Shown here: piece after piece, positions 3,970 to 45,686 of the stretch
Layout: each line of letters begins with the position of its first letter
Numbering within the stretch: the stretch's first letter is position 1
Origin: a virus
Taxonomy: Duplodnaviria; Heunggongvirae; Uroviricota; Caudoviricetes
IMG/VR virus record: IMGVR_UViG_3300045051_000179
Location: 47,051-111,050 of that record
Length of the DNA: 64,000 nucleotides
Reading direction: 5' to 3' (one strand)
Position numbers and translations under genes: made by a program
The notes under the pieces: model-generated
Seen by the model: only the letters and a program-made list of their open reading frames with translations
What the model was told of the DNA's origin: nothing
The model's database searches: none

Positions 3970-4854
3970 ATGGATCAGATTACAGTACGTAAGGCGTTGG
4001 ACCTTGCATCTTCGGGCTCTTACCTAATCCCAGAGATTGTAGACAACGCAATCCGCGACTATGCTACGTCGGAGCCAGTTCTGGCTAACGTAGTCACTCG
4101 CGTGCCTTGGGCTACGAACACCTACTTCATCCGTAGGCGTGACGCCCTCCCGACTGCCTCTTGGGCTGTTGACGGTGGTAACCTGCCGAACGCATCTCAG
4201 AGCACGTACAAGAAGGTCAGTCAGTCGATTGCCTACCTGTACACGGTCGGTTCGGTCACTGGACCGATGCAGGAAGCCGCTGGCTCCCTGTACAACGCTC
4301 TTGCTCTTGAGGTCGAGGCCCACAGCCGCGCCCTGATCGAGCAGTTGTCAACTGACATCGCTACGGCTGATGGCCAGTCCGACGACATCATCGGTATGTT
4401 GTACCAGATCGACACCGATGACAAGATGAACTGGGGCTCCACGGGCTCTGGTGAGGTTGACGCCGCTGGTGCGTATCTAACCCTTGAACTGATCGACACA
4501 GCAATCGACACCGCTCGCGGTGAGGTTGACCTGATCGTCACTTCTCGAAAGGTACGTCGAGCGATCAACGGTCTGCTACAGGCTCAGCAGCAGTTCGTGG
4601 ACAGGACTGAGGTAGCCGCTGGCTTCCGCGTTCTGACCTACGATGGTATCCCCATCGTGACCGACCTGCACTGGGAGACTGACGAGGATATCCTCTTTGT
4701 CCGTCGAGCAGACGCGAAGTTGCTTGTTCACAAGGACTTCACCTACGAGGACTTGGCTCACACCAAGGACGCATCGGACTTTATGATCAAGGGTTACTTT
4801 GGATTCAGCCTTGAGGGGCGTCCTGTACACCTTGATAATTTCGTCCTTCCGTAA
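3970..4854 (+). CDS. Major capsid protein (HK97 fold).
   Basis: A 294-aa protein directly after the protease-scaffold gene. Its composition and position are typical of an HK97-family major capsid protein, and it has a strong GGA-rich ribosome-binding site. Confidence 0.75.
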   Translation: MDQITVRKALDLASSGSYLIPEIVDNAIRDYATSEPVLANVVTRVPWATNTYFIRRRDALPTASWAVDGGNLPNASQSTYKKVSQSIAYLYTVGSVTGPMQEAAGSLYNALALEVEAHSRALIEQLSTDIATADGQSDDIIGMLYQIDTDDKMNWGSTGSGEVDAAGAYLTLELIDTAIDTARGEVDLIVTSRKVRRAINGLLQAQQQFVDRTEVAAGFRVLTYDGIPIVTDLHWETDEDILFVRRADAKLLVHKDFTYEDLAHTKDASDFMIKGYFGFSLEGRPVHLDNFVLP

Positions 4855-4919: not shown

Positions 4920-5438
4920 ATGGCAGTTCGACTGAAGCACCTAACCAAGCATCACGCCCTACAGAAGCACTACTTCTATGAGGGTCACGCAGTCGCGGTT
5001 AATGGGGTCATCGAGATTCCTGCTAATCGTCCTGCTTGGGCACAGCGTATCTACAAGTTAGGTTATATGCTGGACCCCGAGACAGATCGTCGTCTTTCAT
5101 TGGGCGAAGTTCTAGGTCTCTTTAGTGCCAAGAGCACACCCACGCCGGTAGAGGAAACTCCCGCAGTGACGCCAGAGGCGACTCCGGAAGCAACTCCTGT
5201 ATTGGACGAGAACGCCAAGAGCGAGGAAAACACCGATGAGACTAACACCACAGCAGACACGACTACAGATGTCGTGGCAGAACCAGTCGCGCCAGATGCA
5301 ACTTCAGTGGATGTTGAGCAGCCAAGCGCAGCAATCCCAGTTGATGCTGACGCAGAAGTATCTGCCAATAACGACGTACAGCCGGAGTCTCCTGAATCTC
5401 CTGTCACAACTGACAGCGCCGAGGGTCTCCTACCGTAA
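4920..5438 (+). CDS. Head-associated hypothetical protein with a Thr/Pro/Glu-rich low-complexity tail.
   Basis: About 70 residues of globular N-terminus are followed by TPTPVEETPAVTPEATPEATP and a long acidic tail. It lies between the capsid gene and the glycosyltransferase. Confidence 0.5.
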   Translation: MAVRLKHLTKHHALQKHYFYEGHAVAVNGVIEIPANRPAWAQRIYKLGYMLDPETDRRLSLGEVLGLFSAKSTPTPVEETPAVTPEATPEATPVLDENAKSEENTDETNTTADTTTDVVAEPVAPDATSVDVEQPSAAIPVDADAEVSANNDVQPESPESPVTTDSAEGLLP

Positions 5439-5447
5439 GGGCACGTC

Positions 5448-6725
5448 ATGCGCGTCCTCGTAATTGGTGATAGTCCACTAATCAAGACCGGGTTCGGGCG
5501 CGTGAATCACCACGCCGCTGAAGCCTTCCTCCGTCAAGGATGGGAAGTGGCCGCTGTCACTGGTCTGCAATACGAGGAACGAGAGTCTGATCTTGCGATC
5601 CAGCAGTTCGTTCCACTCTCCACCGATGTCAGTGGTTTGTTCAAGGTTATTGAAGTAATTGAGAACAAACTCTTTGAGCCGGATGTCATCTACCTGACGG
5701 CTGATGCGGGCTCAGTTTCGGCCATGGCCTCGGTGATCCCTGCCCGTATCCCAGTTTTTGCGTATGTTCCGATTGAGGGCGAGCCTCTCGCGAGCGCGAA
5801 TTGGAGGGCCATTCTATCCAACATCAACTTCATGACTTGTTCAAAGTACGGTGTCGATGTAGTAGCCCGTGACATGCGCCAGAATATTCCCTACGTCTAC
5901 CACGGAGTGGACTTGAACACATTCACTCCTTTGTCAGAATCAGAGCGTGACGAATATCGTAGGCGCTTGGGGTGGCAAGGAAAGTTCGTTGTTATCTCTG
6001 TCGCGCAGAATGTCCGACGCAAGCAACTGACAAGGCTCATTGAGGCCACATCGATCCTCAAGCATCACTATAAGCAGAAGGACATTCTGACCTATCTGCA
6101 TACTGTCCCCTTCCAGAACTACTGGTTAGAGGGGTGGAACCTACCTGAAGTCTCCGCTGCCTACGATACACATGAGGAAGTTGTCTTCAATCCCCTCATG
6201 AGCGGATTCGGAAAAGCGGTCCCTGAGCGCGGCAATCTTGACGTTCCGGGTATTCGTGAACTTCTGTCGGCTGCGGACCTGTTCGTTCTTCCTTCACAGG
6301 TTGAGGGATTTGGCCTGCCGATAGCGGAAGCCATGGCCTGTGGGACGCCTGTTATGGTTACTAAATACGGTGCCGGATGGGAAGTTGCTCGCCTTGGTGG
6401 AGGCGCACCAATCGAGGTAGCCGATTATGAAACCCATAAGTCCGGTACGCGCTACGCCAACGTCAGCCCGAAGGCATTAGCCGATACCATCCTAGCACTT
6501 AAACGTGATCCGAAGCGCTTAGCCCGGATGCGAGCACAGGGCCTTGAGGCAGTGAAGCAATTCAGTTGGCCCGCATTCGAGGAGACCGTCGTTGGCAAGA
6601 TTGAGGAGACACTCACCCGGTCAGAGACAAGGCGTCGGGAGCAGGAACAGGCTGATTCAGGGCGGGAGGAAGCCGGGTCGTCGTCCGGGTTACTTCGAGA
6701 AACTACGCCTGTTGCTAGCACTTGA
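5448..6725 (+). CDS. GT-B fold glycosyltransferase, family GT4-like.
   Basis: Contains the EGFGLPIAEAMACGTPVMVT motif (E-x7-E region) and an N-terminal Rossmann beta strand, MRVLVIGDS. Confidence 0.8.
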   Translation: MRVLVIGDSPLIKTGFGRVNHHAAEAFLRQGWEVAAVTGLQYEERESDLAIQQFVPLSTDVSGLFKVIEVIENKLFEPDVIYLTADAGSVSAMASVIPARIPVFAYVPIEGEPLASANWRAILSNINFMTCSKYGVDVVARDMRQNIPYVYHGVDLNTFTPLSESERDEYRRRLGWQGKFVVISVAQNVRRKQLTRLIEATSILKHHYKQKDILTYLHTVPFQNYWLEGWNLPEVSAAYDTHEEVVFNPLMSGFGKAVPERGNLDVPGIRELLSAADLFVLPSQVEGFGLPIAEAMACGTPVMVTKYGAGWEVARLGGGAPIEVADYETHKSGTRYANVSPKALADTILALKRDPKRLARMRAQGLEAVKQFSWPAFEETVVGKIEETLTRSETRRREQEQADSGREEAGSSSGLLRETTPVAST

Positions 6726-22917: not shown

Positions 22918-22941
22918 AGGCTAGTGAAAGGAGGTTGTTCA

Positions 22942-24322: not shown

Positions 24323-26911
24323 ATGGCTTGGGCACTTGTAGGTACAATCGGTACTGCCGTACAGGGCGCAGCAAGCGCTGACGCATCCCCTGCATTCGGA
24401 GCATCTGAAAACAGAACTGCTGGCAACTTACTCGTCCTGTTTTCCTCGGTTACCAAGTCTGCAACACTTCCTTCGACTCCGGCTGGCTGGACGATTGCTA
24501 AGCAAGTTGCCGGTACGTCCACGTCCGCAACGATCTATTACAAGGTTGCTCTTGGTTCTGATGCTGCTCCGACAATTACCGGAGTTACCAACGGCCAGAT
24601 CGCCGCGCAGTTGGCTGAGTTCTCTGGCGTTGTGGCATCTGTTGTCAACCAATCTGGTTCCGCGACCGGTACATCGAGCCCCGTAACTGCAACGAATGCT
24701 GGCGCAGATACCAGCACTAACTCACTTATCCTCATGGCCAGCGGCGATACCAGATCGGCTAACCGCGCACCTAATGATACATGGACAAGCAACCACGTCA
24801 CAGCAGTAACGGCAGCCGGTAACAACAACGGTGTCTCCAATCAGGTTCACTATTCGTTCGGCTATGGTAACACCAACTCAACATCTGGTGCTGATACTGC
24901 GATCCTGACCGCCTCTGTTACGACAAGCATCACCGGTATCGCAGTTGTCGATGCAGTATTCAAGCCCGGTCTGACGGCTATTGGTTCGTTTACTGCTAAT
25001 GCTGTCCTGAAGTCAACCCCTTCTGGTACATTCACGGCAGACGCAACACTCAAGAAGACTCTCAGTTCGACTTTTACTGCTGACTCTACGCTTCTAAAGA
25101 CGTTAACTGGCACGTTTACTGGTGATGCCGTATTAAAGAAGACACTGACCGGCACTCTTACGGCAGATTCCGTACTGAAGAAGACGATCAGTGGATCATT
25201 TACTGCCGATGCCACTCTTGCTTCTAATGTAACGACCGTTGGTGGCTCCTTCACTGCGGACGCGACTCTTAAGAAGACCCTTAGCAGCACTTTTACTGCT
25301 GATGCCCTTCTATTGAAGGTTGTGACGGGAAGCATTGCTTCTGATGCAACACTTCAGAAGACCCTTTCTTCGACATTTACAGCAGATGCAGACCTTAAGA
25401 AGACGCTATCGGGTTCGTTCACTGCTGACTCTCTCTTGCGAGTGCCGCGATCCGGATCATTTACATCTGATTCCGTCCTTCTAAAGACTATCTCGACAAC
25501 CGATCCGATTACCTTCGCGTCAGTGGATTCTGCGCTTACAGGAGTATACGGCTCTACTACAGATGGAACAAATTGGGTGGCAGTCGGCAAGAACGGTACC
25601 TCACCGGCCATTGCCTTGTCCACCGATCCTGCTAGCGCATGGTCCTTAGGTACGATATCTCCAACTCCGGACGCCAATAGCGCTGCTATTACAGACATTA
25701 TTGATGATGGCGTGCGATTTGTCGGTGTCAGTCCCTCTGCTCAGGTCAGTTCATCCGACGCACAGGTTCTCTACTCCACTGGCGGGCGTCCAGATGTCCT
25801 TGATAACTTCAACAATCGAACCATCTCCGATGTACATACCGGTTCGGGTCACGCTCAGTGGGGAGTCTCCTCTAGCGGTGTGGCGCATTACTTCACCGGA
25901 GGCGTCGAGAACTTCGCAGGCGTGGCTAATGGCTATGGTAGGATCGTCTTCGATCCTTCTTCAATAGGATCGGCAGGATCGTTCGGCTACTTCACTGATT
26001 CCCTAGAGGGAGTCCCGTCGCCAACCGATGACGAGCCGACATTCACCTACAGATTCCGTACAGATACCATCCCAGACGGATCGGCAGGGCCGTTAACCGG
26101 TAGTCGTGGGCCGATAGAATACTACTACGAGTGGTCTGCCAACAATAGCAGCGAAACCATTGACATCTATGTTTACGTAAGCAGCGTCGGCGGTGTTGGT
26201 AGAATCGACATGGCGGGAGCGGCTGCCCCGGTGGCCAAGACGAACTGGGTAGCCGACACTTGGTACACGGTCAAGACGCAGCGACTACATAGTGGTCTTG
26301 TCCAGATGAAGGTCTGGGCAGATGGCGATTCCGAACCGGGCTGGATGTTGTCACACAACCTCGGTGTAGACTATGATGACTGGGGCGGTGGTGGATTCGT
26401 ATTACTCGAAGTCACGGTCAATAACGATTGCGACGACGGTTCCGGTTTTGGTGGCGACAGAATTGTCCTAGAATTTGACGACTTCATTGCTGGCGGAAAC
26501 GCCGCGATGACTTGGACACTCCGGACGGTTTCAATTCAGCCACCCGGTACGAATAACCTTGGTGGTCCTGTCGATGTCGCCTACGGCAACGGCATCTATG
26601 TTGTTGTGGGCCGACGCGATACGAGCACAGGCGGTGGTGGAAGAATCTGGACCACGCCAGATATGACCGCTGGCTCCTTCACGTTGAGGGTGAGCGATAT
26701 AGGCGGCTCGACAGGCACCGTCACAAAGGTTGCTTTTGGTGGCGGTGAATTTGTAGCCCTTGCCGATGATGGCACAAGCCAGTATCTCATGACCTCGACA
26801 AACGGTATTTCATGGAATACCTCTGCCGCTGATCCATTTGGCGCTGGCGCTTGGGCGTATAACCTAGCCTATGGGAATGGAGTCTGGACCTTTGTGGGCG
26901 GTGATGCATGA
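24323..26911 (+). CDS. Tail fibre or receptor-binding protein with an 11-copy block of 15-residue repeats.
   Basis: An 862-aa protein. The repeats follow the pattern LKKTLSGSFTADAxL. It has a Gly/Trp-rich C-terminal domain. Confidence 0.6.
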   Translation: MAWALVGTIGTAVQGAASADASPAFGASENRTAGNLLVLFSSVTKSATLPSTPAGWTIAKQVAGTSTSATIYYKVALGSDAAPTITGVTNGQIAAQLAEFSGVVASVVNQSGSATGTSSPVTATNAGADTSTNSLILMASGDTRSANRAPNDTWTSNHVTAVTAAGNNNGVSNQVHYSFGYGNTNSTSGADTAILTASVTTSITGIAVVDAVFKPGLTAIGSFTANAVLKSTPSGTFTADATLKKTLSSTFTADSTLLKTLTGTFTGDAVLKKTLTGTLTADSVLKKTISGSFTADATLASNVTTVGGSFTADATLKKTLSSTFTADALLLKVVTGSIASDATLQKTLSSTFTADADLKKTLSGSFTADSLLRVPRSGSFTSDSVLLKTISTTDPITFASVDSALTGVYGSTTDGTNWVAVGKNGTSPAIALSTDPASAWSLGTISPTPDANSAAITDIIDDGVRFVGVSPSAQVSSSDAQVLYSTGGRPDVLDNFNNRTISDVHTGSGHAQWGVSSSGVAHYFTGGVENFAGVANGYGRIVFDPSSIGSAGSFGYFTDSLEGVPSPTDDEPTFTYRFRTDTIPDGSAGPLTGSRGPIEYYYEWSANNSSETIDIYVYVSSVGGVGRIDMAGAAAPVAKTNWVADTWYTVKTQRLHSGLVQMKVWADGDSEPGWMLSHNLGVDYDDWGGGGFVLLEVTVNNDCDDGSGFGGDRIVLEFDDFIAGGNAAMTWTLRTVSIQPPGTNNLGGPVDVAYGNGIYVVVGRRDTSTGGGGRIWTTPDMTAGSFTLRVSDIGGSTGTVTKVAFGGGEFVALADDGTSQYLMTSTNGISWNTSAADPFGAGAWAYNLAYGNGVWTFVGGDA
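24975..25490 (+). repeat. In-frame 45-bp tandem repeats (about 11 copies).
   Basis: The units read FTADATLKKTLSSTFTADSTLLKTLTG and so on. Confidence 0.7.
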
Positions 26912-28614
26912 CATCACACGCTAGGATTTGGGTAACCACTGATCCGATCAACGTATCGGCTACAGAGGTCTTTACTTCGACAGGCACAGATGGCGCTCTC
27001 GGTGGCGTTGCCTACGATTCTACGACTACGATCTGGACGGCTGCTGCCGATGACACTGGTCGTATCTATCAGACTGCTGATCCATCTGGTACATGGGTAG
27101 CGCAGACTACCGTTACGGCACAGAATTCCTCCACGGTCACGGCCTCCGGGGGAACGACTGTCTCCGGTGGTAAGTCTGCCTCCCACATCCAGCAGGGTAA
27201 GACCCGTACGCCATTCACACTAGATGCTGTAATCGAGAAGACGACATCTGCGTCCTTTGCCGCAGATTCCTTGCTGCTCAAGCGCACGTCTTCTTCGCTC
27301 ACTGCTAATGCCACGATCAAGAAGACCCTAAGTGGATCATTCACGTCGAATGCAGTTCTATTTAAGGTCGCTACGGGATCGTTCAGTGCTGATAGTACGC
27401 TGTTTAAGACAGTCTCTAGTTCCATCACGGCAGATGCCTTCATTGTTGCCAACACTGGCGGCGGAACATTCACTGCCGATGCAGTTCTGCGCAAGGTTCA
27501 GACCGGATCGTTTGCTGCTGACGCTACGCTGCTCAAGTCGATCAGTGGCTTGTTTGCGGCCGATTCTACACTAAAGAAGACGCTGAGTGGTTCGCTTACC
27601 GGCGATGCATTGCTGCTAAAGGGCTTCAACTCTAGCGTCACCGCTGATGCGGCAATCAAGAAGACTCTAGCCGGGTCCGCAACTGCTGATTCTGTTCTTC
27701 TCAAGACGACATCAGGCTCCCTCTCGGCCAATGCCGACCTCAAGAAGACCCTGACCGGATCAATCACTTCTGATGCGGTGCTATTCAGGGTCCAGTCGGG
27801 TAGCGTAGTGGCTGATGCGGCCATCCTCAAGACAACATCAGGATCGTTCACGGCTGACGCAGAACTGGTAGCCCAAGTTGCCGGTACTGGATCATTCCGC
27901 GCCGACGCTGTATTGCTCAAGACCTTCACTCAGTCGTTCGTTGCAGATGCAGTTCTCCTAAAGACAGCCACATCCTCGTTCACGGCTGATGCCTTCCTCA
28001 ACACGAGAATTGTTGGCTCGATAACTGCTGATGCAGTCCTGTTCAAAACTCTGACAGGATCAATCACATCCGATAGTGTTCTGAAGAAAACTTTGGCGGG
28101 CTTCTTTACTGCTGATGCAGTCATTGTCGGCGCGACAACCAGAACGGGATCATTCTCCGCAGATGCAGTTCTACGAAAGACACTGAGCGGAGGCTTCACG
28201 GCTGACGCCATTCTTGTTCGCAGAACTGTCAGCAACATCACTGCTGATGCGGTTCTATTCAGATCGTTTACAGGCTCGATAACCGCCCATGCGGTATTGA
28301 AGTCATCCTTCGTGGGCTCATTCACTGCTGATGCACTGTTGCGCTTGCGAACAATGGGCTCGATTACGGCTGATGCTGCATTCCTGAGGGTTGTCCAAGG
28401 GTCATTCACCACAGACGCATCTATTGCCACCAGCCAGACTGGTCACTTTACTGCCGACGCATACATTGCACCTCGAAGTAGAGTGCATGTCAGCCAGACC
28501 CAATCAATCTTGATCCGGACAAGCCAAACTGCCTCTGTCCTGATCGCTTCTTCCTCGATCAAGACCTCGCAAACATCGTCGATCCTGATCACTACCTCAA
28601 TCACGGAGAGTTAA
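26908..28614 (+). CDS. Repeat-built fibre-like protein with about 28 copies of the same 15-residue repeat.
   Basis: A 568-aa protein. Its start overlaps the upstream stop codon (ATGA). It carries the same repeat family as the upstream gene, plus a C-terminal SQTxSxLI mini-repeat. Confidence 0.55.
   Translation: MTSHARIWVTTDPINVSATEVFTSTGTDGALGGVAYDSTTTIWTAAADDTGRIYQTADPSGTWVAQTTVTAQNSSTVTASGGTTVSGGKSASHIQQGKTRTPFTLDAVIEKTTSASFAADSLLLKRTSSSLTANATIKKTLSGSFTSNAVLFKVATGSFSADSTLFKTVSSSITADAFIVANTGGGTFTADAVLRKVQTGSFAADATLLKSISGLFAADSTLKKTLSGSLTGDALLLKGFNSSVTADAAIKKTLAGSATADSVLLKTTSGSLSANADLKKTLTGSITSDAVLFRVQSGSVVADAAILKTTSGSFTADAELVAQVAGTGSFRADAVLLKTFTQSFVADAVLLKTATSSFTADAFLNTRIVGSITADAVLFKTLTGSITSDSVLKKTLAGFFTADAVIVGATTRTGSFSADAVLRKTLSGGFTADAILVRRTVSNITADAVLFRSFTGSITAHAVLKSSFVGSFTADALLRLRTMGSITADAAFLRVVQGSFTTDASIATSQTGHFTADAYIAPRSRVHVSQTQSILIRTSQTASVLIASSSIKTSQTSSILITTSITES
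27210..28470 (+). repeat. In-frame 45-bp tandem repeats (about 28 copies).
   Basis: The units read FTADAVLLKTxxGSF and so on. Confidence 0.7.
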
Positions 28615-28970: not shown

Positions 28971-29783
28971 ATGTATAGGCCAGTACAACGTAAGCAGATA
29001 GGAGACCCATACACTACGCTTGATGCTTCGATATGCACGATGGAGTCGGGTGCAATGGCACTTGACTTCCATACCCTAGGCAGAGTGAAGTTGTGGGGCG
29101 GTCAGTTAGTCCAGCACTGTGGTCGTTCCTACTCTGACATCGCCGCCCACGGCACCAATCTCAATAACCTGCAAACAGCATGGAAGTATTACGGTTACAC
29201 GCTGACGATCAAGTCCGGTCACACGTGGGCTGATCTTCTGGCTGACCTCAAGGCTGGTCATGGCGTCGTTCTACAGGGTGACTATGATCAACTCTCCTAC
29301 GGCGCTAAGTGCCAGAAGAATTTCTACGGTGCTCATGGTATCTACCTGAACCCTGAATTCTACGGTACGGCTATCCTCATGATGGACCCGCTGTGTGGTT
29401 CTCCGAAGTGGGTCAGCAATGCTGAACTTCGTAATTTCGCAGAGAAGTTCGGTCGATTGGTATTCCCGTACTCTCAGAACTACCAGAAGATTTGCTATGC
29501 CATCACGGCTGCGCATCCGACAACTGCGCCTGCGCCGACACCGACGACACACAAGATCAATATTGCTGCCAATGCCAAGGTCTATCAGGCTAACCTGACA
29601 TCGACTGGCTGCATCAAGTCTTGGACTGTTACTACGTGGTATTCATCTGCTAGTTCCGCTCCTTGTCTCGCGGCGACCAAGAAGCCGGGATGCAGCAGCG
29701 GTAGCGCCACATTGGCCTACGTCACGAAGGGTGTCTTTGCTGGCAAGTGGGTCCGCATAGGCTCAGGAGTGACTTACGTCTAA
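28971..29783 (+). CDS. Two-domain protein; the N-terminal domain may be a Cys/His peptidase-like lysin. The TP-rich linker is PTTAPAPTPTT.
   Basis: The ribosome-binding site ggagg lies 7 nt upstream. Conserved Cys (DASICTMESG) and His (GAHGIYLN) residues are present. It is the last gene before the late terminator. Confidence 0.35.
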   Translation: MYRPVQRKQIGDPYTTLDASICTMESGAMALDFHTLGRVKLWGGQLVQHCGRSYSDIAAHGTNLNNLQTAWKYYGYTLTIKSGHTWADLLADLKAGHGVVLQGDYDQLSYGAKCQKNFYGAHGIYLNPEFYGTAILMMDPLCGSPKWVSNAELRNFAEKFGRLVFPYSQNYQKICYAITAAHPTTAPAPTPTTHKINIAANAKVYQANLTSTGCIKSWTVTTWYSSASSAPCLAATKKPGCSSGSATLAYVTKGVFAGKWVRIGSGVTYV

Positions 29784-30551: not shown

Positions 30552-31059
30552 GATACCTAAACAATCCTTCTATTCTCGGGAGCGGTTCAACCGATCCATC
30601 ATAAAGCACAAGAGTATGAAGCAGTTCTCCACCAGCCTCTTTAATTCGAGCCTCAATCTTGTCTCTTGTTCTGCCAAGATAGCAGGAATTGTCGAGGAAG
30701 ATAAACTCCCTACCGTCGTAATTACCATCAAAGAATACCAAATCCATTGGCGATCCAATATTAGGAAGATCGTTATGGCGCAATCCTCCAAATACCCACT
30801 TAGGGTCGATCCATTGCGCGTATCTGTACGCCCAATTCTTGAATCCATAGCCCCATTTGCCAGAGACCACAATGGTCGGCGCGGGAGCAAGAAATCCATA
30901 GCGATTCATGAATCGATCATGCTGTATCTGGTAGAAGTAATCACTCGATAATACCGCATCCATGCGATCAAAGAACTCTGTGCCGCCACCAACAGAATAC
31001 TCCAACTGATCAGTCGCGTATTCGATTAGACCGTGTGCGATTTCAAATTCATTGACCAA
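30538..31059 (-). CDS. Hypothetical protein.
   Basis: A 173-aa ORF. Confidence 0.45.
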   Translation of the reverse strand: MVNEFEIAHGLIEYATDQLEYSVGGGTEFFDRMDAVLSSDYFYQIQHDRFMNRYGFLAPAPTIVVSGKWGYGFKNWAYRYAQWIDPKWVFGGLRHNDLPNIGSPMDLVFFDGNYDGREFIFLDNSCYLGRTRDKIEARIKEAGGELLHTLVLYDGSVEPLPRIEGLFRYHDGE

Positions 31060-31324
31060 TTGGGTTTACATCCTCCTGCCAAGTGTAGTGACATCTATTG
31101 CACTGAACGAAGAAGTGCTCTGCCTGTTTCGGATGTGTCATGCATAATTCATGGTAATCGCAATCGATGCCATGTGCCCTCCATGTTTTTTGAATATCAA
31201 GAGGTCTATGGTAATCAACGTATGGATCGACACTTTGACACTTTGGACATGGCCCAAATACTCTGCCAGTCCTAGGGTCGGGAATAGGATCGATAGAGAA
31301 CTGCGGATGCGTACGACCTAGCAT
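31049..31324 (-). CDS. Cys/His-rich hypothetical protein.
   Basis: The internal start MLGRTH was chosen to avoid a 100-nt overlap with the endonuclease VII gene. Confidence 0.35.
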   Translation of the reverse strand: MLGRTHPQFSIDPIPDPRTGRVFGPCPKCQSVDPYVDYHRPLDIQKTWRAHGIDCDYHELCMTHPKQAEHFFVQCNRCHYTWQEDVNPIGQ

Positions 31325-31764
31325 TCTGGCTCCTCTAAAGAGGGTAGCGAATCGCGTCCCCAATGGTCTATGATTGCGCCACCATTGGCCACATAAATCA
31401 GAGCCGCAGAGACCCTTTCCCACCCATCAGATTCGATGAGACCGACCAGTGTATTGCAGGCTGGGCATAGGATATATCGAACCGCCCCTGTAGTATGATT
31501 GTGATCAACATAAATCGCTGGTCGCTCTCTACAGATGGCGCATAATCCACCCTGTAGTCTGAGGAGCGCATCGTAGTCCTCAAGGACCATGCCATAACGA
31601 GTGAATAGTTGTCTCTCGCGGTCGCTGCGAATGGGCGGAATTATACCAGCCCTAACAGCAGCCTGTCGCTGGCCCTTAGTCATCTCTGATCGATGTAGGC
31701 CCCTGAGTTGTTCTGGATTATGCTTGGGTCGGGCGGTCATCGGTACCTTTCTCTCGGGCTTCAA
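31318..31764 (-). CDS. Recombination endonuclease VII (Holliday junction resolvase).
   Basis: Contains the motif CAICRE ... VDHNHTTGAVRYILCPACNTLVG. Confidence 0.7.
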   Translation of the reverse strand: MKPERKVPMTARPKHNPEQLRGLHRSEMTKGQRQAAVRAGIIPPIRSDRERQLFTRYGMVLEDYDALLRLQGGLCAICRERPAIYVDHNHTTGAVRYILCPACNTLVGLIESDGWERVSAALIYVANGGAIIDHWGRDSLPSLEEPEC

Positions 31765-32203
31765 ATTCCATCAGGGCCATAGCATGAAAGATGACTGAGG
31801 CAAGATGATGGCGACCAGTTTCTTGGTCCATTGACTCGCCATTCCAGAACAGCATAATGTGGCGCAAGGCTGCTTCGTAACTTAAATGCCAAGCAAAGCC
31901 CTTTTCCCAATTCCTGTCGTCATACTTCTCGGCACCCTTGCCGTACAAACGGGCAACTTCCCACAATGGAATGACGGGGATCAGGTCGAAACGAGCAAGT
32001 TTCTCGCCCTTCTCACCACCGGTAATGGGGTCCTTGGTTCTGATTTCTGGATCATGCGCTATATCGGTGGTTAGTTTAGCCAACGAACTTGCCTCCCACA
32101 TACATATCAAACTTGGCGCTTGTGTCCTGCCAGTTGCCCCCGAACCGGATGGCCTTGTCATCGATATAGGCGAGTGCTGGAATTTTCTCCGCTGTCGCTC
32201 CAT
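31718..32203 (-). CDS. Hypothetical protein.
   Basis: Has a conserved C-terminal region (GGEKGEKLARFDLIP ... NWEKG). The N-terminus is uncertain. Confidence 0.4.
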   Translation of the reverse strand: MERQRRKFQHSPISMTRPSGSGATGRTQAPSLICMWEASSLAKLTTDIAHDPEIRTKDPITGGEKGEKLARFDLIPVIPLWEVARLYGKGAEKYDDRNWEKGFAWHLSYEAALRHIMLFWNGESMDQETGRHHLASVIFHAMALMEFEAREKGTDDRPTQA

Positions 32204-32552
32204 CCACTTCGATGTCGTACTTTGCGCAATACTGCCTTAGATAGTCAACCTCATCCATGATGCCCTTAGCGATATCTCGACCCTCGTGTTCGTGCCAGAC
32301 GGCAGATAGGCGAGAAGTAAATAGGATCACCTTATATCCGGAGGCGCGGACATCCTTCACCCACTGGACGACGCCAGTAAATGGCTCAGGGAATTCGTGG
32401 AGCCCTCCCCAAGGACGGATCGTGCCATCAAAGTCTAGGCAGATGATGCCCTCCGCTACGGGAGGATGTCCATTCTCTTTGGCGAACTTATCGAGTTTCT
32501 TCTGGCGAGGGTTACTCGCAGTCGATTTCTTCTCTGCTACCGATGTAGTCAA
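32076..32552 (-). CDS. HAD-superfamily phosphatase.
   Basis: ICLDFDGTI matches HAD motif I (DxDGT). ILFTSR and YIDDK match the later HAD motifs. Confidence 0.6.
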   Translation of the reverse strand: MTTSVAEKKSTASNPRQKKLDKFAKENGHPPVAEGIICLDFDGTIRPWGGLHEFPEPFTGVVQWVKDVRASGYKVILFTSRLSAVWHEHEGRDIAKGIMDEVDYLRQYCAKYDIEVDGATAEKIPALAYIDDKAIRFGGNWQDTSAKFDMYVGGKFVG

Positions 32553-32910
32553 GAATTTCCTCCAAGGCTAGATTGGTTTTGTCATCAGGGTCTTGCTTGC
32601 GCATCATGGCTGCCCACTGAACGGCAAGGTCGAGGGAGGTTACAATGAACCCATCCTCGAATGCTTCCTTTAATTCCTGAGGTTCGGCTTTCTCCCACTC
32701 ATCACCGACCGTATCGTAGTACCATCCGCCGATTCCTATCTCACCCTTCAGGGTCAGGAAGATCAGATCAACAGCACCGCCATGGGCGGTAGGTTCTAGG
32801 TTCTCCCACGCTACAAAGACCTTACCATAGAGGGCAGGGATTAGATCAGACCACTTCTCTTTCGAGGCTGCCGATTCCTCAAAGGGGATCGGGGGAGTAT
32901 AGAGTCTCAA
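32512..32910 (-). CDS. Hypothetical protein.
   Basis: A 132-aa ORF in an operon context. Confidence 0.4.
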   Translation of the reverse strand: MRLYTPPIPFEESAASKEKWSDLIPALYGKVFVAWENLEPTAHGGAVDLIFLTLKGEIGIGGWYYDTVGDEWEKAEPQELKEAFEDGFIVTSLDLAVQWAAMMRKQDPDDKTNLALEEILDYIGSREEIDCE

Positions 32911-33227
32911 AGCGAGGGGCCTCCTTCATTTTCCAGTCTCTCTACTGCGTCACCATTGCTCTGTTCCTTGGCTAGGATTGCCATGGCCTCATTGTAGTCC
33001 TCGGTATTCATGATGACCCGAAGACCAATGACGCGAGCGTATTCCAGTTGCTCTTTGACGGTCCAATCCCTAAAGTTGTACGGAACACCACGGTCATCGA
33101 TGTCCATGATGATGATCTTGCCACGTTCTACGAATCGCGAGCGCGTTATCTCCCAAGTCCTAAGGCTGTCCATTATAGCCTTTAGGCGCTCGAATGTCAA
33201 TGGCTCATCTGAATCCAGAATGCTCAC
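32907..33227 (-). CDS. Hypothetical protein.
   Basis: Its stop codon overlaps the start of the downstream gene. Confidence 0.4.
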   Translation of the reverse strand: MSILDSDEPLTFERLKAIMDSLRTWEITRSRFVERGKIIIMDIDDRGVPYNFRDWTVKEQLEYARVIGLRVIMNTEDYNEAMAILAKEQSNGDAVERLENEGGPSL

Positions 33228-33228
33228 G

Positions 33229-34038
33229 TCATACTCCTAGTGTCAACTTTAAGACTTCTAATCCCTCGGGACCAGTGCAGATATCGCTCGTCTGTCCTGC
33301 GATTCTTGCCTCCCACGCCCGTGCCTGCAATTCAATCTGATCGACCATCGGCCCAATATCCTGTCTCACGCCCTGTGCCCAGACACGCTGATTGGTAAGG
33401 TCTGCGATGATGTTGTCCTCGCCCTGAAACTCCCACAGCCTTATACGACTAGAGGAGTCTGGTTCGAGGTAGCGAACCTCAAGAGTTCCTGTTAGATTCT
33501 TCTTTGGAACGGAGAAATCGTAGGCGGCTTGGTCATTCGAATCATACCTGAGGTTGATCCTCAAGTCCTTACCGAAGGTCCAGCGAAGTAGATCGATATC
33601 ATGGCTGGCATGATCAACGGCTACGCCTCCGTATTCTCCCTTCGGCTTTGGGCCAGCCCGTTCGATGCGCAGATCACCATTATACAGGCTCGCCCTGATG
33701 AATGCAAATGCAGGATTGAACCTGCCTAGGTAGCCGACAGATAGCGACACGCCAAGTTTTTCTGCGGTATCAACCATGACTTCTGCCTGCGCGATCTTAT
33801 GCGATAGTGGCTTTTCCACCAACACAGGCTTGCCCTCGGTGAGGAACATCAATGTTGGCATCCCGTGATAGGGTGTAGGAGTGGCTATTACCGCTGCATC
33901 TGATCGCAGAGTAACCTGATCGTAGTTGATCGGACCATCAATGATATCTAGGCGCTCTACGTCGTGGCCGAATGATTCGAGGATGTTGGCATGGAGTTTA
34001 CCCATCTTTCCCTTAGCCCCAATGACGGCGATTCTCAA
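33229..34038 (-). CDS. Gfo/Idh/MocA-family NAD(P)-dependent oxidoreductase; probably a sugar dehydrogenase.
   Basis: MRIAVIGAKGKMG matches the Rossmann fingerprint, and VLVEKPL matches the family motif. Confidence 0.7.
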   Translation of the reverse strand: MRIAVIGAKGKMGKLHANILESFGHDVERLDIIDGPINYDQVTLRSDAAVIATPTPYHGMPTLMFLTEGKPVLVEKPLSHKIAQAEVMVDTAEKLGVSLSVGYLGRFNPAFAFIRASLYNGDLRIERAGPKPKGEYGGVAVDHASHDIDLLRWTFGKDLRINLRYDSNDQAAYDFSVPKKNLTGTLEVRYLEPDSSSRIRLWEFQGEDNIIADLTNQRVWAQGVRQDIGPMVDQIELQARAWEARIAGQTSDICTGPEGLEVLKLTLGV

Positions 34039-34778
34039 TGACTTATCTCTCCCATTTTCGCATAAAGGGCATCAGACTTCACGATATCTGCTCCACCCTT
34101 GCTGTGGATTAAGTATGCCTGCTGTGGGGCTCTTGGCAGCCTATCCGATCCACGCAAAGTGCTCTCGTGCTTTCCGTCGAGCATCATCAATTCATGGAGC
34201 GGGCGAACCATCCATGAGCGCTTCGTCTTCCAAAGCCTCACATGCCAATGATACGGTTCCTCTGGCCCGAGTACGCCGTCCCACCAGTTCAATGACAGGT
34301 ATAGCCAGCCTAGAGCGGCAGGGTGCTTGGCCATTCCTGCGGCGCTGGTGACGAACTTCATATGTTCGAGCATCTGATATGAAGGTAGTTCATCTGGATC
34401 AAGCCCGAACGTCCATTCATATCGATGACGGGCTAGACCCTTATTGCGAGTCTTAGAGAAGTTTTCAAACTTCTCATGAACAACCCTAACAGGAGCCGTG
34501 TTCGGATAGTTCCACGACTCCATCTTCTCGATGTCTTCTTCTGATGAACCCGTATCAACGATAACAATCTCCTGTACATGAGGTAGTAGGAAGGTTGTAA
34601 GTGCCGCTAGACGATCTATCGGAGGATTGAGGACCATGAAGTGAACGGATATACCGGGTAGTAATTCCCGATCATCGTGTTCGAAATCATAGTCCTCAGT
34701 CGGGATCAAAAGTGATGGGTCGTCTGCCGAGTTGAGCGTGGCTAGGGGCTCCGGGCGTTCCGTCGAATCCAATGTCAT
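34035..34778 (-). CDS. GT-A fold glycosyltransferase, family GT2-like.
   Basis: ISVHFMVLNPP ... EIVIVDTGSSED has a DxD-type region. The start is uncertain and overlaps the upstream gene by 83 nt. Confidence 0.55.
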   Translation of the reverse strand: MTLDSTERPEPLATLNSADDPSLLIPTEDYDFEHDDRELLPGISVHFMVLNPPIDRLAALTTFLLPHVQEIVIVDTGSSEEDIEKMESWNYPNTAPVRVVHEKFENFSKTRNKGLARHRYEWTFGLDPDELPSYQMLEHMKFVTSAAGMAKHPAALGWLYLSLNWWDGVLGPEEPYHWHVRLWKTKRSWMVRPLHELMMLDGKHESTLRGSDRLPRAPQQAYLIHSKGGADIVKSDALYAKMGEISH

Positions 34779-35484
34779 GTTTCCTTCTAGCAGGAACTCC
34801 CATCACGGTAGTTCCTTCTTCAACATCTTTTGTCACGACTGATCCAGCCCCGACAATGGCATTCTTCCTAACGATTACTCCGGGCAAGAGAATCGCTCCA
34901 CCACCAATAGCGGCTCCGTTCTCGATTTTCGGCGCATACAGATTCGTGTCGTTCTGGTTCTTGCCCGCAAAGGAGTTATCATCCATGGTCAGAACACCAG
35001 TCGAAATGAATACATCATTGCCGATGATGACGCTGTTAGTTATGTGGCTAAGGTCGATCACCCTTGAGCGCCTGCCCATCCTGACAAGTTTTTGGAACGT
35101 GGAGTTCGAGCCAACGATAGAGTCATCGTAGACAACACAATCTTCTCGAATACGCACACCGTCCCCAACCAGCACCCTCCGACCAATATCAGTTCCAGTG
35201 TAGATAGTGACATTGGTTCCGATAACGGTATCCTCACGAACGATGGTATAGCCATCGGAATATTCCATGGGCTGGCCGGGGCGGTGCTTGGGGCGACCTA
35301 TCACGCTGTTATCGTGGATGGCAACGCGATCCGCAATGATCGTGTTCTCATGGATAACGACATTAGCCCCGATATAGAGTCCCTTCCCAAGCCTTACGGA
35401 CGGATGAATAACAGCCGAAGATGCGATCCATGAGCCCTTAATGCCCTTATCAGACCAAGGCATGTTACCTCCCTCAGACGACAT
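34696..35484 (-). CDS. Left-handed beta-helix (hexapeptide-repeat) acyl/acetyltransferase, sugar N-acetyltransferase-like.
   Basis: Repeated [LIV]-G-x-x-x-x hexapeptides run throughout (IGANVVIHENTIIADRVAIHDNSVIG ...). Confidence 0.7.
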   Translation of the reverse strand: MSSEGGNMPWSDKGIKGSWIASSAVIHPSVRLGKGLYIGANVVIHENTIIADRVAIHDNSVIGRPKHRPGQPMEYSDGYTIVREDTVIGTNVTIYTGTDIGRRVLVGDGVRIREDCVVYDDSIVGSNSTFQKLVRMGRRSRVIDLSHITNSVIIGNDVFISTGVLTMDDNSFAGKNQNDTNLYAPKIENGAAIGGGAILLPGVIVRKNAIVGAGSVVTKDVEEGTTVMGVPARRKHDIGFDGTPGAPSHAQLGRRPITFDPD

Positions 35485-36271
35485 TGACGATCTTCGTAGT
35501 ATCGATATTCTTGATGTAGACTAGCGTGCCATTCGAATCGGCGCTAGAGGTCTTGATCAGAATCACGCCCCAGTCCTTCGAGCCATTGACAAGGCCCAAG
35601 AACCAAGCATTGCCAGCGGTGCCACTGTAGTTCTTTAGTAGATCACCGTTGGTCCCACGGTAAAGCGGCATTCCATACGTGATCGGATACTTCTGACGAA
35701 TGGCTCCGTTGCTGAATGCAATGCCTTCTTCGTTAGTTGCATAAATCATCTTATCACCTGTTTCATAGAAGGTTCCCTCTGGAAAGACCCAAGAAATCAT
35801 ATCGTCCACGATGATGGAGACATACGATAGATGGCCAGTAGAACCGGGTGTCTTACCAATCCATCGGGCGGTTGCTCGATAGATGTCCCAGTAACCGTAA
35901 TGGTCGCGATACCAATCGAGGTACCTGATATAGTCAAGAGTGGCATTCTTGTAGTTATCGTACGTGGCATAGGTGTATCCGTTACCCGGAGAATACTTGC
36001 CTGTTGCGAGCACCGTCAGATTAGCATCCCAGAGCATGTTACCCCACGAGCCCGTGGTCTTGGCATAGCCACTAGTTCCGAACTGACTCTCGACGCGGAA
36101 CTGGGAGAGAGCAAACGTAGGATCGACACCGCCAGCCACGAATTGATCATAGATCAGGCTCGCTTCCGGTACTGCCGGTGAATTCTTGCTCTTAAGCAAC
36201 TGTGTAAACTTATCCTTCGAAATCCTCGGAGGAAAGTGTGTTGGGGAATTTTGACTGGGAACGTCTGTCAT
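35474..36271 (-). CDS. Endolysin, GH73 N-acetylglucosaminidase domain plus a C-terminal binding domain.
   Basis: FALSQFRVESQFGTS matches the GH73 catalytic Glu motif (AQAxLESGWG-like). Confidence 0.65.
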   Translation of the reverse strand: MTDVPSQNSPTHFPPRISKDKFTQLLKSKNSPAVPEASLIYDQFVAGGVDPTFALSQFRVESQFGTSGYAKTTGSWGNMLWDANLTVLATGKYSPGNGYTYATYDNYKNATLDYIRYLDWYRDHYGYWDIYRATARWIGKTPGSTGHLSYVSIIVDDMISWVFPEGTFYETGDKMIYATNEEGIAFSNGAIRQKYPITYGMPLYRGTNGDLLKNYSGTAGNAWFLGLVNGSKDWGVILIKTSSADSNGTLVYIKNIDTTKIVNVV

Positions 36272-36327
36272 CTAGCGACCTGCATACTTTCTATGCGGCA
36301 CATGAGGGGCGGCTTGGTGGCCATGAC

Positions 36328-36474
36328 TTACTTCTCGACCCTCGGCCCATCTACGGGATAGGCGACCTTGCGGACCTCGCCCGCAATCTTGGCGACAGCC
36401 TTAGTGGCTCGTTCCATTTCCTCGCGAGTAAACGGTCGCGGGACAGGAATGCGAATTGTGACTTGCGAGTTCAT
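36328..36474 (-). CDS. Small basic protein of 48 aa, not in the ORF track.
   Basis: AGGAGG lies 5 nt upstream of the ATG. The peptide reads MNSQVTIRIPVPRPFTREEMERATKAVAKIAGEVRKVAYPVDGPRVEK. It sits between the holin and endolysin genes. Confidence 0.35.
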   Translation of the reverse strand: MNSQVTIRIPVPRPFTREEMERATKAVAKIAGEVRKVAYPVDGPRVEK

Positions 36475-36491
36475 TATATCCTCCTAAAAGA

Positions 36492-36527
36492 TAAAACGGT
36501 GCGCCAAACTTAATTGGACGCACCGCC
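36492..36527 (-). terminator. Rho-independent terminator on the - strand, downstream of the holin gene.
   Basis: A stem cggtgcg(t)cca / tggcgcaccg with an 8-nt loop, followed by TTTTATCTTTT on the - strand. Confidence 0.5.
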
Positions 36528-36539
36528 TTCATTGCTGAC

Positions 36540-37022
36540 TTACTTCGAGTCTGGTGCTGGCAGATCAACCGCAGTCTCAACCGGTGCATCCGTAGTATCA
36601 GATGCCGTGTCGGCAGTGACATCAGACGTATTGATCGTAGTATCCGTTGTGTTAACTACGACCGACGCATTGTCGCCAGCCGGGTTGAATTCTCGCAGAA
36701 CCGCAGACTCAACGGCAGATGACAACTGCTCGGCTGAAACCTTGAGACCAGCCTTTTCAAGAGAGACAGATGCGTAGTTCAGCGCAGCGACCTTCTTGTC
36801 GGCAACATAGCCTGCGATCTTGCCCTGCTCAGCGGCCTGAACAGCATCAGACACGATGGCCTGTAGCAATTCGAACTGCTTAGCGTTCGTATGAGCCTTG
36901 ATCCAAGACAAAAGATTCTTCGATGCAAGACCAACAACTCCGGTAATGACCAGCAATAGCGCATTGGCCAGTGCCTCATTCAGTCCGGATGACTGTAGAA
37001 TAGTAACCAAATCTGGCGTCAT
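36540..37022 (-). CDS. Holin (LL-H-like family).
   Basis: An N-terminal transmembrane helix (ALANALLLVITGVVGLAS) is followed by WIKAHTNAKQ ... AVESAV and an acidic tail. The gene is adjacent to the endolysin gene. Confidence 0.55.
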   Translation of the reverse strand: MTPDLVTILQSSGLNEALANALLLVITGVVGLASKNLLSWIKAHTNAKQFELLQAIVSDAVQAAEQGKIAGYVADKKVAALNYASVSLEKAGLKVSAEQLSSAVESAVLREFNPAGDNASVVVNTTDTTINTSDVTADTASDTTDAPVETAVDLPAPDSK

Positions 37023-37031
37023 TTGTTTCTC

Positions 37032-37400
37032 CTAGTTGACCCGGAGGGCTATGGCTCTTTCCATGCTCTCTCGAATCTGCTGCACGATTTCGACGAGTTG
37101 TTGGGCGGTGATGCTATCGTTGCCAAACAAATCTTCGACATCAAGCCGTACCTCTACGGCCAACTTGTTATTCCCTGCATCTGCATGGAATTTTACCACT
37201 TCGACATACAGGATCGGGATTGCAATTTCATCAGGTTGCCTGCCGAGAACATTGCTCCAATCCAGAGAGACTGTTGCGACATCCGCAAAGTCAAATCGTC
37301 CTAATAGATCGGCCAGTACCCTCATGCCTTCCGGCGCGAATCGTCTAGCCTTGGTAAGAATAGGCGGGCGTGACCCTAATTCTACTGCGATGACTCTCAC
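37032..37400 (-). CDS. Hypothetical protein.
   Basis: A 122-aa ORF coupled to the primase gene. Confidence 0.4.
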   Translation of the reverse strand: MRVIAVELGSRPPILTKARRFAPEGMRVLADLLGRFDFADVATVSLDWSNVLGRQPDEIAIPILYVEVVKFHADAGNNKLAVEVRLDVEDLFGNDSITAQQLVEIVQQIRESMERAIALRVN

Positions 37401-39937: not shown

Positions 39938-40172
39938 CGATACTCAGCCAGTTATCGGCCTTGTAGTCTTCTAGTGTCTTGTAAAACCTGCTGCCATATT
40001 CGTCAGCAAAGTACGCTTTGTCTTCTACGTCGTCGGCTAGTTCGTCGTTGACATAGATATCAACGAATGGCGGGTCAGAGTAGATTTCAATCCGCTCCAA
40101 CCCACGATCATTGTTGAGTTCGATATATCCTTCCCAATACGCCTTACGCATCGCGATTGATACTCCTCTCAC
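39909..40172 (-). CDS. Hypothetical protein; paralogue of the previous gene.
   Basis: C-terminus reads NWLSIDEVWP. Confidence 0.4.
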   Translation of the reverse strand: MRGVSIAMRKAYWEGYIELNNDRGLERIEIYSDPPFVDIYVNDELADDVEDKAYFADEYGSRFYKTLEDYKADNWLSIDEVWPQEGN

Positions 40173-40575
40173 TGTCGAATCCAGAAGGATACCGGGCCTT
40201 GAGTTTGTCGATATTGGCAGTCGCTACCTCCGACAGAGAAAAGCCATACTTGTCAGCAAGACAGGCAACGTACCACAGTTCGTCACCCAGTTCCTTAAGC
40301 ATCTTGTCTCGGTCCTCCGAGTGACCATGCCCAATTTCCTTCTTGACGATATCCGCAATAGCACCAGCCTTCATGGATAGACGAGTCGAGAGTTCCAGAA
40401 TCTCAGCCGCCTCGCCCGCCAGACCTAGGGTGAATACGGCCTTAGCAATATTCGAATCCGGATAAATGGAGGCAGTGCGGAGGGCTTCCATTTGGTATCG
40501 ATTGAGCGTTTCGATGTCACTCATGCTTGTATCCATACCATCTAGTTCCCCTAACATCGGGAAACTCAGCATCAA
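40144..40575 (-). CDS. mazG: MazG-like nucleoside triphosphate pyrophosphohydrolase.
   Basis: EAAEILE ... GDELWYVACLA ... LSEV ... NIDKLKAR matches the MazG motif pattern. Confidence 0.7.
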   Translation of the reverse strand: MMLSFPMLGELDGMDTSMSDIETLNRYQMEALRTASIYPDSNIAKAVFTLGLAGEAAEILELSTRLSMKAGAIADIVKKEIGHGHSEDRDKMLKELGDELWYVACLADKYGFSLSEVATANIDKLKARYPSGFDSERSINRDA

Positions 40576-45538: not shown

Positions 45539-45686
45539 ACTGTCCCTGATGGCAAGCAACGCAAGTGTCTGATCGGGACGAATCGCCACCGGCAAGAATG
45601 CCACGTCGGGGACCGGCGAAGATGAGGGGGAATGCGCGGTTGAGACGCTCGACCACATCAGCAGGAAGACGGATGCGCATAGTAGA

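Follow-up and report, generated by a model that had tools for sequence, protein, structure and literature searches.

We have examined a stretch of 64,000 nucleotides (nt) of an uncultured tailed phage, from IMG/VR virus record IMGVR_UViG_3300045051_000179 (positions 47,051 to 111,050 of that record; hereafter the window), in which three co-oriented minus-strand genes just past the holin gene encode a hexapeptide-type acetyltransferase, a family 2 glycosyltransferase (GT2) and a dehydrogenase of the Gfo/Idh/MocA family (Gfo). We judge the chances to be evenly balanced that the genes of this region form the variable portion, for sugar tailoring, of a phage glycosylation system, the constant parts of which would be the GT2 and a GT4 glycosyltransferase encoded beside the capsid gene, and the target of which would be a virion protein. 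Within the module it is the gene for GT2, and not the trio, that forms the conserved core; the GT4 is probably the partner of GT2. The initial annotation had left open whether the virion, the host surface or the phage DNA is modified. Our observations favored the virion and gave no positive support for modification of DNA or for serotype conversion of the Gtr type.

The Pfam match of the GT2, a protein of 200-250 residues, was weak (26.6 bits, relative to a cutoff of 23.3). In an alignment of 77 family members we observed that R73, the D89-P-D91-E92 motif, H141, R143, H157-E158 and H187 are invariant, and an AlphaFold2 (AF2) model (pLDDT 94.6) showed a clear GT-A fold in which DPDE provides the DxD-type motif. 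By alignment and model, the GT2 is thus apparently an intact GT-A enzyme. Among solved structures, its catalytic domain is nearest to those of GmaR, the flagellin O-GlcNAc transferase, and of the peptide S-glycosyltransferases SunS and ThuS; TarP, a prophage-encoded teichoic-acid GlcNAc transferase, was also among the structural matches. The 98 homologues that we collected are all metagenomic and all of about 200 residues, as are all 77 aligned sequences. An exhaustive profile search yielded approximately 25 short, phage-type clusters and, beyond them, thousands of more distant domains. A tblastn search of 50,697 deposited phage genomes with the GT2 found nothing, so that no cultured relative could be used. 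The same profile also matched giant uncharacterised proteins (P0339-P0483) of 700-4000 residues, which contain 2-6 tandem GT2 domains.

Approximately 85 loci surrounding GT2 homologues were annotated locally by BLAST with the window proteins, and could be sorted into 2 types. Type 1 loci are from the window's own clade and have a GC content of 50-61%; type 2 loci are from more distant, high-GC phages (63-73%), and in these the head-tail connector genes come after GT4. In 27 de-duplicated loci, the GT2 homologue directly follows a gene for a major capsid protein (MCP) of the HK97 type, and a homologue of the window's GT4 lies within 8 kb downstream in 16 of the 16 capsid-type loci that have at least 6 kb of flanking sequence. 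The 2 glycosyltransferase genes abut each other in L009 and L010. In other loci the space between them is filled: by a methyltransferase in L006, by epimerase/dehydratase, asparagine-synthase-like, GDSL and hexapeptide acyltransferase genes in L011 (10306-14365), and by FdtA, a second and a third GT2, GNAT, SDR and KAS-III genes in L023 (10612-15555). The last 2 sets of tailoring genes would suit a pathway to amino sugars that are acylated or amidated. Pontimonas phage phiPsal1, which is in culture, presents the order MCP-GT4-methyltransferase-GT2-neck; by hhalign, its GT2 is not detectably related to the present family (probability 0.3), and we regard this phage as an architectural analogue only.

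In the window itself, the GT4 gene is separated from the MCP gene by a gene of 172 codons, p172, and the order MCP-p172-GT4 is retained in 6 relatives (L069-L074), the capsid proteins of which are 52-85% identical. The p172 protein holds its position in these relatives with merely 32-42% identity. Its C-terminal half, about 100 residues, is rich in Thr, Pro, Glu and Ala, mucin-like and probably disordered. Speculatively, p172 may be a decoration protein and a candidate acceptor of glycans. We considered that p172 might be a homologue of the gene between GT2 and GT4 in L006, and rejected this, since the 2 are not homologous and the L006 gene is the methyltransferase mentioned above. In the aggregate, the synteny of capsid, GT2 and GT4 genes, together with the structural relationship to GmaR, SunS and ThuS, leads us to infer that the acceptor is most likely a virion protein, the candidates being the capsid, the Thr/Pro-rich p172, the tail tube and a repetitive fibre.

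The type 1 loci provide the context for the genes that accompany the GT2 in the window. Their order is primase, a gene for a 122-residue protein, usually a holin, an optional acetyltransferase, GT2, a variable segment and usually a gene of the HAD type. In at least 5 distinct sister contigs (L045/L046, L048, L049, L080), the genes at this same position are acetyltransferase-GT2-DegT-Gfo, where DegT denotes an aminotransferase; 2 further, shorter contigs (L079, L081) contain DegT and break off in it or right after it. The variable segment is empty in L002, L007/8, L082 and L083, which have the acetyltransferase-GT2 pair without DegT or Gfo, and in other type 1 loci it holds a methyltransferase, an epimerase, a CAP-domain protein or a pectate-lyase-like protein. 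The sister DegT proteins are best matched by C3 aminotransferases, namely DesV (2oga, 2e-65), QdtB (3frk) and WbpE (3nu7). Among bacterial homologues of the acetyltransferase, the nearest is P0278 from Natronincola (40% identity). It is encoded in an RmlA-RmlB-FdtA-[LbH]-DegT-GT2 cluster, LbH designating the left-handed beta-helix enzyme, and this is the classic layout for a dTDP-3-acetamido sugar. Because of the sister loci, the C3-type DegT matches and the Natronincola cluster, the ancestral cassette appears to be one of a 3-dehydrogenase, a 3-aminotransferase, a 3-N-acetyltransferase and GT2, of which the window seems to be a derivative without the aminotransferase.

In the full cassette, Gfo would oxidise C3 of a nucleotide sugar, for example UDP-GlcNAc, DegT would aminate the 3-keto sugar, and the LbH enzyme would N-acetylate the 3-amino sugar to yield a nucleoside diphosphate (NDP)-3-acetamido-3-deoxy sugar. 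GT2 would then attach the tailored sugar to a protein of the virion, and the role of GT4 would be to start or lengthen the glycan, so that the particle would acquire a variable sugar coat. In the window phage, with DegT lost, amination would be supplied by the host, or Gfo would be idle and only the acetyltransferase and GT2 would act.

Family assignments for the 3 proteins of the window, as first made from the sequence alone, were borne out by Pfam, by PDB comparisons, by motif alignments and, for the GT2, by its fold. The acetyltransferase matched Pfam Hexapep over 5 stretches (E=2.7e-26), as expected of the tandem hexapeptide repeats of a left-handed beta-helix. Among solved structures, its best match is QdtC (3fs8, E=6.8e-15), aligned near full length over residues 20-234, with N159 and D160 of the QdtC TNDP sequence placed opposite D168 and D169; WlbB (3mqg, E=3.2e-9) was matched as well, among other sugar N-acetyltransferases. 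The best curated model, TIGR03570 (NeuD/PglB/VioB), gave E=2.8e-25 and 89.1 bits, under its cutoff of 160.8. Gfo showed the NAD-binding Rossmann domain of PF01408 (E=5e-14) with its EKP sequence, and E75-K76-P77, D142, H146 and D147 were invariant in the alignment. Its best NCBIfam match was UDP-GlcNAc 3-dehydrogenase (NF040723, E=9.4e-22), at 77.9 bits far under the cutoff of 450, and the matches in the PDB, which were with Gfo-family sugar C3 oxidoreductases, included 7bvj and the C3-oxidising DgpA. The protein is shorter by about 60 residues than its bacterial counterparts (approximately 315-335 residues) and is without their C-terminal insert. We consider it probably a nucleotide-sugar 3-dehydrogenase, predicted and apparently intact.

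The initial annotation had the stop and start codons overlapping throughout the cluster. This was so for GT2 and Gfo, which share TTGA, whereas the acetyltransferase gene does not overlap its upstream neighbor: its open reading frame (ORF) is open to position 35484, a GGGAGGT Shine-Dalgarno sequence precedes the ATG at 35463, and this ATG is most likely the start. For GT2, the ATG at 34778 is probably used, since the resulting MTLD N-terminus is common to homologue P0004; this would create an 83-nt overlap with the acetyltransferase gene. The only other true 4-nt overlap is between the 2 small ORFs that follow Gfo (Table 1).

The trio had been said to look like a minimal pathway for making and transferring a modified, possibly N-acetylated amino- or keto-sugar. 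The idea fits the sister phages, which hold the complete set of genes, but in the window the trio is not self-sufficient, since a tblastn search of the 64 kb with 3 sister DegT proteins detected no aminotransferase (best E=0.2). In every other Gfo-bearing locus that we found (L045/46, L048, L049, L080), DegT is immediately upstream of Gfo; the window is the sole locus with Gfo and without DegT among approximately 20 loci of the clade. Together with the recurrence of the bare acetyltransferase-GT2 pair in other members, these observations would also be expected if the trio were partly decayed, with Gfo a non-functional passenger left over from the loss of DegT and the remaining pair using sugars made by the host. 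We hold this to be rather unlikely. The Gfo reading frame is intact and retains all the invariant catalytic residues, its translation is predicted to be coupled to that of GT2 through the TTGA overlap, and the missing step could be supplied by an aminotransferase of the host. An idle Gfo would, as a sub-hypothesis, be compatible with the virion reading that we favor.

Several further observations, besides the missing aminotransferase, weigh against that reading. In the window's clade, GT2 is located in the replication/lysis arm amid genes of nucleotide metabolism and outside the structural operon. Among the loci examined, no contig of the clade other than the window could be shown to carry GT2 and GT4 together; this may be ascribed to the close GT4 relatives in IMG/VR being on short contigs. 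The capsid proteins are without obvious Ser/Thr-rich tails. The identity between the GT2 and SunS is merely about 18%, so that the acceptor class cannot be confidently transferred from GmaR or SunS, and the GT2 ends after the catalytic domain, with no TPR or other acceptor-binding domain such as GmaR and SunS possess. Also, the acetyltransferase-GT2 pair stands alone in L002, L007, L082 and L083, where the acetyltransferase is independent of a phage DegT or Gfo, and its substrate may therefore differ from the product of these 2 enzymes. Finally, synteny and the class of acceptor used by distant structural relatives are the sole grounds for the proposed target.

The position of the clade genes directly after the holin, the presence of an integrase in the phage and the appearance of TarP among the structural matches each suggest a different target, the host envelope, and the bacterial homologue of the acetyltransferase likewise comes from a surface-glycan cluster, one with GtrA and PMT_2 genes. 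The module would then modify an envelope glycan, in lysogenic conversion, superinfection exclusion or a change of the cell wall tied to lysis, an explanation to which we assign a low probability. In that case GT2 would add the tailored sugar to teichoic acid, to an S-layer or lipopolysaccharide precursor or to another surface polymer, and so alter the receptors of competing phages. The GT2 is a soluble catalytic domain of 200 residues, and no GtrA, GtrB or flippase-type family was found in any scanned ORF. Within the lytic arm, the genes are part of an array with little space between its members, far from the integrase, and most GT2 homologues are encoded between capsid and connector genes, which would be odd for conversion genes. 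Moreover, when 185,579 species-representative genomes, which should reveal prophages, were searched with a single peptide pattern, there was no close GT2 homologue, only remote and generic GT2 matches of 21-36% identity, and consequently neither a prophage nor a host could be assigned.

The neighborhood of GT2 in the clade, with primase, dATP/dGTP diphosphohydrolase and MazG, and with DNMK in relatives, could also be taken to mean that the module hypermodifies phage DNA, GT2 and/or GT4 glycosylating 5-hydroxymethyl-pyrimidines with a tailored sugar as protection from restriction. Phage DNA glycosyltransferases of both the GT-A (TarP/JGT-like) and the GT-B (MshA/BshA-like) folds are described as modifying 5-hydroxymethylcytosine (5hmC), and their genes are sometimes near structural genes (bioRxiv 10.1101/2023.12.21.572611); in its sequence, the GT4 of the window also resembles MshA and BshA. 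Nevertheless, we regard this explanation as very improbable. A Pfam scan of the window ORFs of at least 140 residues revealed no ThyS-like hydroxymethylase, no TET/5mYOX enzyme and no C5-methyltransferase, which argues against glycosylation of DNA, and there were none in the capsid-type islands examined. The scan included every such ORF except that of 1331 residues at 10221-14216, the other unscanned ORFs being of about 110 residues or shorter, and it pertains to the 64-kb window, approximately 47 kb of the source contig (110,922 bp, Logan run SRR24010766) being outside. In addition, the R73...D89-P-D91-E92...H157-E158 pattern of the GT2 differs from the R...DDD...EDY/F motif that Pyle et al. 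(bioRxiv 2023.12.21.572611) give for DNA GT-A enzymes, and the best structural relatives of the GT2 act on peptides.

We have compared the proposed virion glycosylation system with several that are known. The enzymes WbpB/WbpE/WbpD of Pseudomonas, WlbA/C/B of Bordetella and GnnA/GnnB make 3-amino or 3-acetamido UDP-sugars, and QdtA/B/C and FdtA/B/C make dTDP-Qui3NAc and dTDP-Fuc3NAc. The sister phages encode the same triad, but no phage protein reached any equivalog cutoff, and in the window Gfo is shorter and the aminotransferase is missing, as noted above. Mimivirus and the chloroviruses encode their own enzymes for rare amino sugars (aminotransferase, N-acetyltransferase) and glycosyltransferases that decorate the particle; the likeness to these is conceptual only, as these are viruses of eukaryotes with unrelated gene sets. 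Relative to GmaR of Listeria and to SunS/ThuS, the phage GT2 is the catalytic domain alone. In contrast to Gtr serotype-conversion modules, the scanned ORFs do not include a GtrA flippase, a membrane-bound GtrB and a specific Gtr. In contrast to the DNA-hypermodification clusters of Pyle et al., they contain no source of 5hmC or 5-hydroxymethyluracil (5hmU), and the GT-A motif is different.

The closest parallels are with mycobacteriophages Che8, Corndog and Myrna, for which PMC12363180, in summarising Freeman et al. 2023, states that capsid and tail tube proteins are glycosylated by the phages' own glycosyltransferases; PMC4351075 places the glycosyltransferase and methyltransferase genes of Corndog inside the structural operon. 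As in those phages, glycosyltransferases and methyl- or acyl-tailoring enzymes are found here within or beside the head genes (GT4 in the window, MCP-GT2-...-GT4 islands in relatives), and the window GT4, directly after MCP and p172, has the Che8/Corndog-type layout, with GT2 in the other arm. The differences are that the present GT2 family is without a tblastn match among deposited phage genomes; that the islands carry a 3-dehydrogenase, a C3 aminotransferase, an LbH acetyltransferase, FdtA and an epimerase, whereas those of the mycobacteriophages have only glycosyltransferases and methyltransferases; and that the proposed system of the window is split over 2 arms of the genome.

We propose, tentatively and with somewhat less than even confidence, that many uncultured phages of soils and wetlands have in common an island not described before, of MCP, a mini-GT2 of the GmaR/SunS-like kind, hypervariable rare-sugar enzymes and GT4, the products of which would coat the virion with diverse sugars of bacterial type; in the window's clade the island would have been split, GT2 and the tailoring genes having moved beside the holin, and in the window phage the aminotransferase would have been lost. 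By analogy, such an island would be the phage counterpart of flagellar glycosylation islands, with sugars such as 3-acetamido hexoses.

Table 1. Positions of the genes and other features discussed (numbering of the window)
Feature	Position	Strand	Basis or contents
Plus-strand arm	1-29.8 kb	+	Terminase, portal, MCP, p172, GT4, connectors, tail tube, tape measure, carbohydrate-binding tail proteins
Major capsid protein (MCP)	3970..4854	+	SU10_MCP E=1.8e-10, Phage_capsid E=9.6e-5
p172, 172 aa, between MCP and GT4	4920..5438	+	No significant Pfam match
GT4 (GT-B) glycosyltransferase beside capsid gene	5448..6725	+	Glycos_transf_1 E=5.6e-20
Minus-strand arm	30-64 kb	-	Integrase, DnaB, sliding clamp, primase, MazG, GMP-reductase-like enzyme, two DSPc phosphatases, holin, sugar cluster
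HAD-like phosphatase, small, capless, DFDGT...TSR...K...DD	32076..32552	-	phrog_1238 E=5e-14
ORF, 132 aa	32512..32910	-	No Pfam, PHROG, NCBIfam or PADLOC match; homologue in L001 only
ORF, 106 aa	32907..33227	-	No Pfam, PHROG, NCBIfam or PADLOC match; homologue in L001 only
Putative sigma-70-type promoter, TTGACA-17-TATAAT	33172..33200	-	12/12; consensus may not be that of the host
Gfo/Idh/MocA NAD-dependent sugar dehydrogenase, short (269 aa)	33229..34038	-	PF01408
GT-A/GT2 glycosyltransferase, small, soluble, catalytic domain only	34035..34778	-	Family alignment, AF2 model
LbH (hexapeptide) sugar N-acetyltransferase, QdtC/FdtC/WlbB type, 255 aa	34696..35463	-	Hexapep, QdtC, WlbB
Putative muramidase/glucosaminidase-like endolysin, 265 aa	35474..36271	-	Glucosaminidase E=0.0023, below cutoff
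Holin (Holin_LLH family)	36540..37022	-	PF09682 (Phage_holin_6_1) E=1.5e-12, phrog_6918
Integrase	61569-62615		

The genes that flank the cluster are listed with it in Table 1. The cluster had been placed directly downstream of a lysis cassette; the holin, which is the conserved upstream neighbor of the acetyltransferase and GT2 genes in the clade, is solid, but the putative lysin is a sub-threshold match only. This 265-residue protein matched sequences of the PDB at E=0.35 at best and was not found at the window's position in the related loci examined, L001-L005 and L045-L049 included. A weak Peptidase_C39-like protein closes the structural arm (28971-29783, plus strand), and in L043 (14491-16562) its counterpart lies beside a GH25 lysozyme and a holin; from this arrangement, the real endolysin of the clade may be the C39-like gene rather than the one by the holin.

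The HAD gene lies about 0.7 kb beyond Gfo, not the 1 kb first estimated. Its motifs I-IV (D40-F-D42-x-T44, T79-S80-R81, K123 and D131-D132) show little or no variation among 16 homologues. The gene had no Pfam match and remained under curated cutoffs (TIGR01662, E=1e-3, 19.2 bits relative to 44.6). With a profile, the best match in the PDB was 1xpj (3.3e-6), which like 2obb is a small capless HAD protein of unknown function, and marginal matches were with GmhB (0.011) and a 'capsule biosynthesis protein'. The single-sequence AF2 model was not confident (pLDDT 39.8), and the single-sequence PDB matches, all of them spurious designed TIM-barrels, were rejected. The DFDGT and other HAD motifs of this phosphatase are in place, but its distribution does not tie it to the sugar pathway: the gene follows the GT2 region in 12 of 18 clade loci, with or without acetyltransferase, DegT and Gfo, and is absent from the capsid-type islands. 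Because it occurs in clade members with and without tailoring genes, it looks like a backbone neighbor of the clade, putatively a sugar-phosphate or nucleotide phosphatase. In most relatives, the cassette does not include the 106-residue ORF that lies here between the HAD gene and Gfo. A perfect sigma-70-type consensus is found 30 nt past the stop codon of Gfo, within the start of this ORF as annotated, and may define a separate transcription unit that comprises both small ORFs, the HAD gene and the gene for the dGTP diphosphohydrolase.

With regard to the genome as a whole, a nucleotide query made up of positions 31000-37100 of the window had no match among the deposited phage genomes. A tRNA scan for clues to the host or to an att site found none, and the cluster proteins and GT4 had no match to the PADLOC defence models. 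The minus-strand arm includes an IMPDH/GMP-reductase-like enzyme without CBS domains (56309-57388, minus strand; IMPDH domain, E=6e-89), a protein with a dATP/dGTP diphosphohydrolase N-domain (31718-32203, minus strand) and a MazG pyrophosphohydrolase (40144-40575, minus strand). These 3 proteins suggest that the purine nucleotide pool may be manipulated by the phage; in the window we saw no gene of the PurZ, deazaguanine or hydroxymethylase kinds. Also in the minus-strand arm are 2 genes for dual-specificity protein phosphatases (DSPc; 44333-44815 and 59754-60275), an SPFH/Band 7 (stomatin/prohibitin-like) protein among the early and replication genes (50087-51019, E=2.3e-37) and, away from the holin, an RlpA-like double-psi beta-barrel protein (45200-45937; DPBB_1, 'lytic transglycosylase') that was near threshold at 26.4 bits relative to a cutoff of 28.8.

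In the plus-strand arm, a tail fibre-like protein of 568 residues (26908-28614) contains dozens of repeats of about 13 residues with a consensus of about SGSFTADAVLxKT; Tandem Repeats Finder detected no tandem repeat in the DNA of this gene, despite the visibly repetitive protein. Tail-region proteins at 14227-15801 and 21031-22239 have CBM96 with a Rha78A-like Ig domain, and BNR_4, respectively, and these carbohydrate-related domains suggest a polysaccharide receptor. There was a weak signal for a LAGLIDADG homing endonuclease in the tail module (22924-23667, E=0.0027); a clear LAGLIDADG gene adjoins DnaB in relatives L004 (2620-3135 of that locus) and L005.

The enzyme families described here are ordinary, and particle glycosylation encoded by viruses is already known. 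To our knowledge, virion glycosylation encoded by phages has been shown only recently and only in a small number of mycobacteriophages, in which it influences recognition by antibodies. What is new is a GT2 family that, by tblastn of the deposited genomes, is confined to uncultured phages; an apparently tight linkage of this GT2 to the capsid gene and to GT4 across many lineages; what appear to be swappable rare-sugar cassettes between GT2 and GT4; and the seemingly split, aminotransferase-less version of the window phage. If the proposed function is correct, self-glycosylation would be far commoner among environmental phages, and the swappable amino-sugar cassettes would imply diversifying selection on the sugar coat of the particle, for which host range, protection from host or environmental factors and mimicry of host glycans are possible drivers. 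The window phage, a natural 'deletion mutant' in which the aminotransferase seems to have been lost, would be informative as to the extent to which phage pathways of this kind rely on the sugar metabolism of the host.

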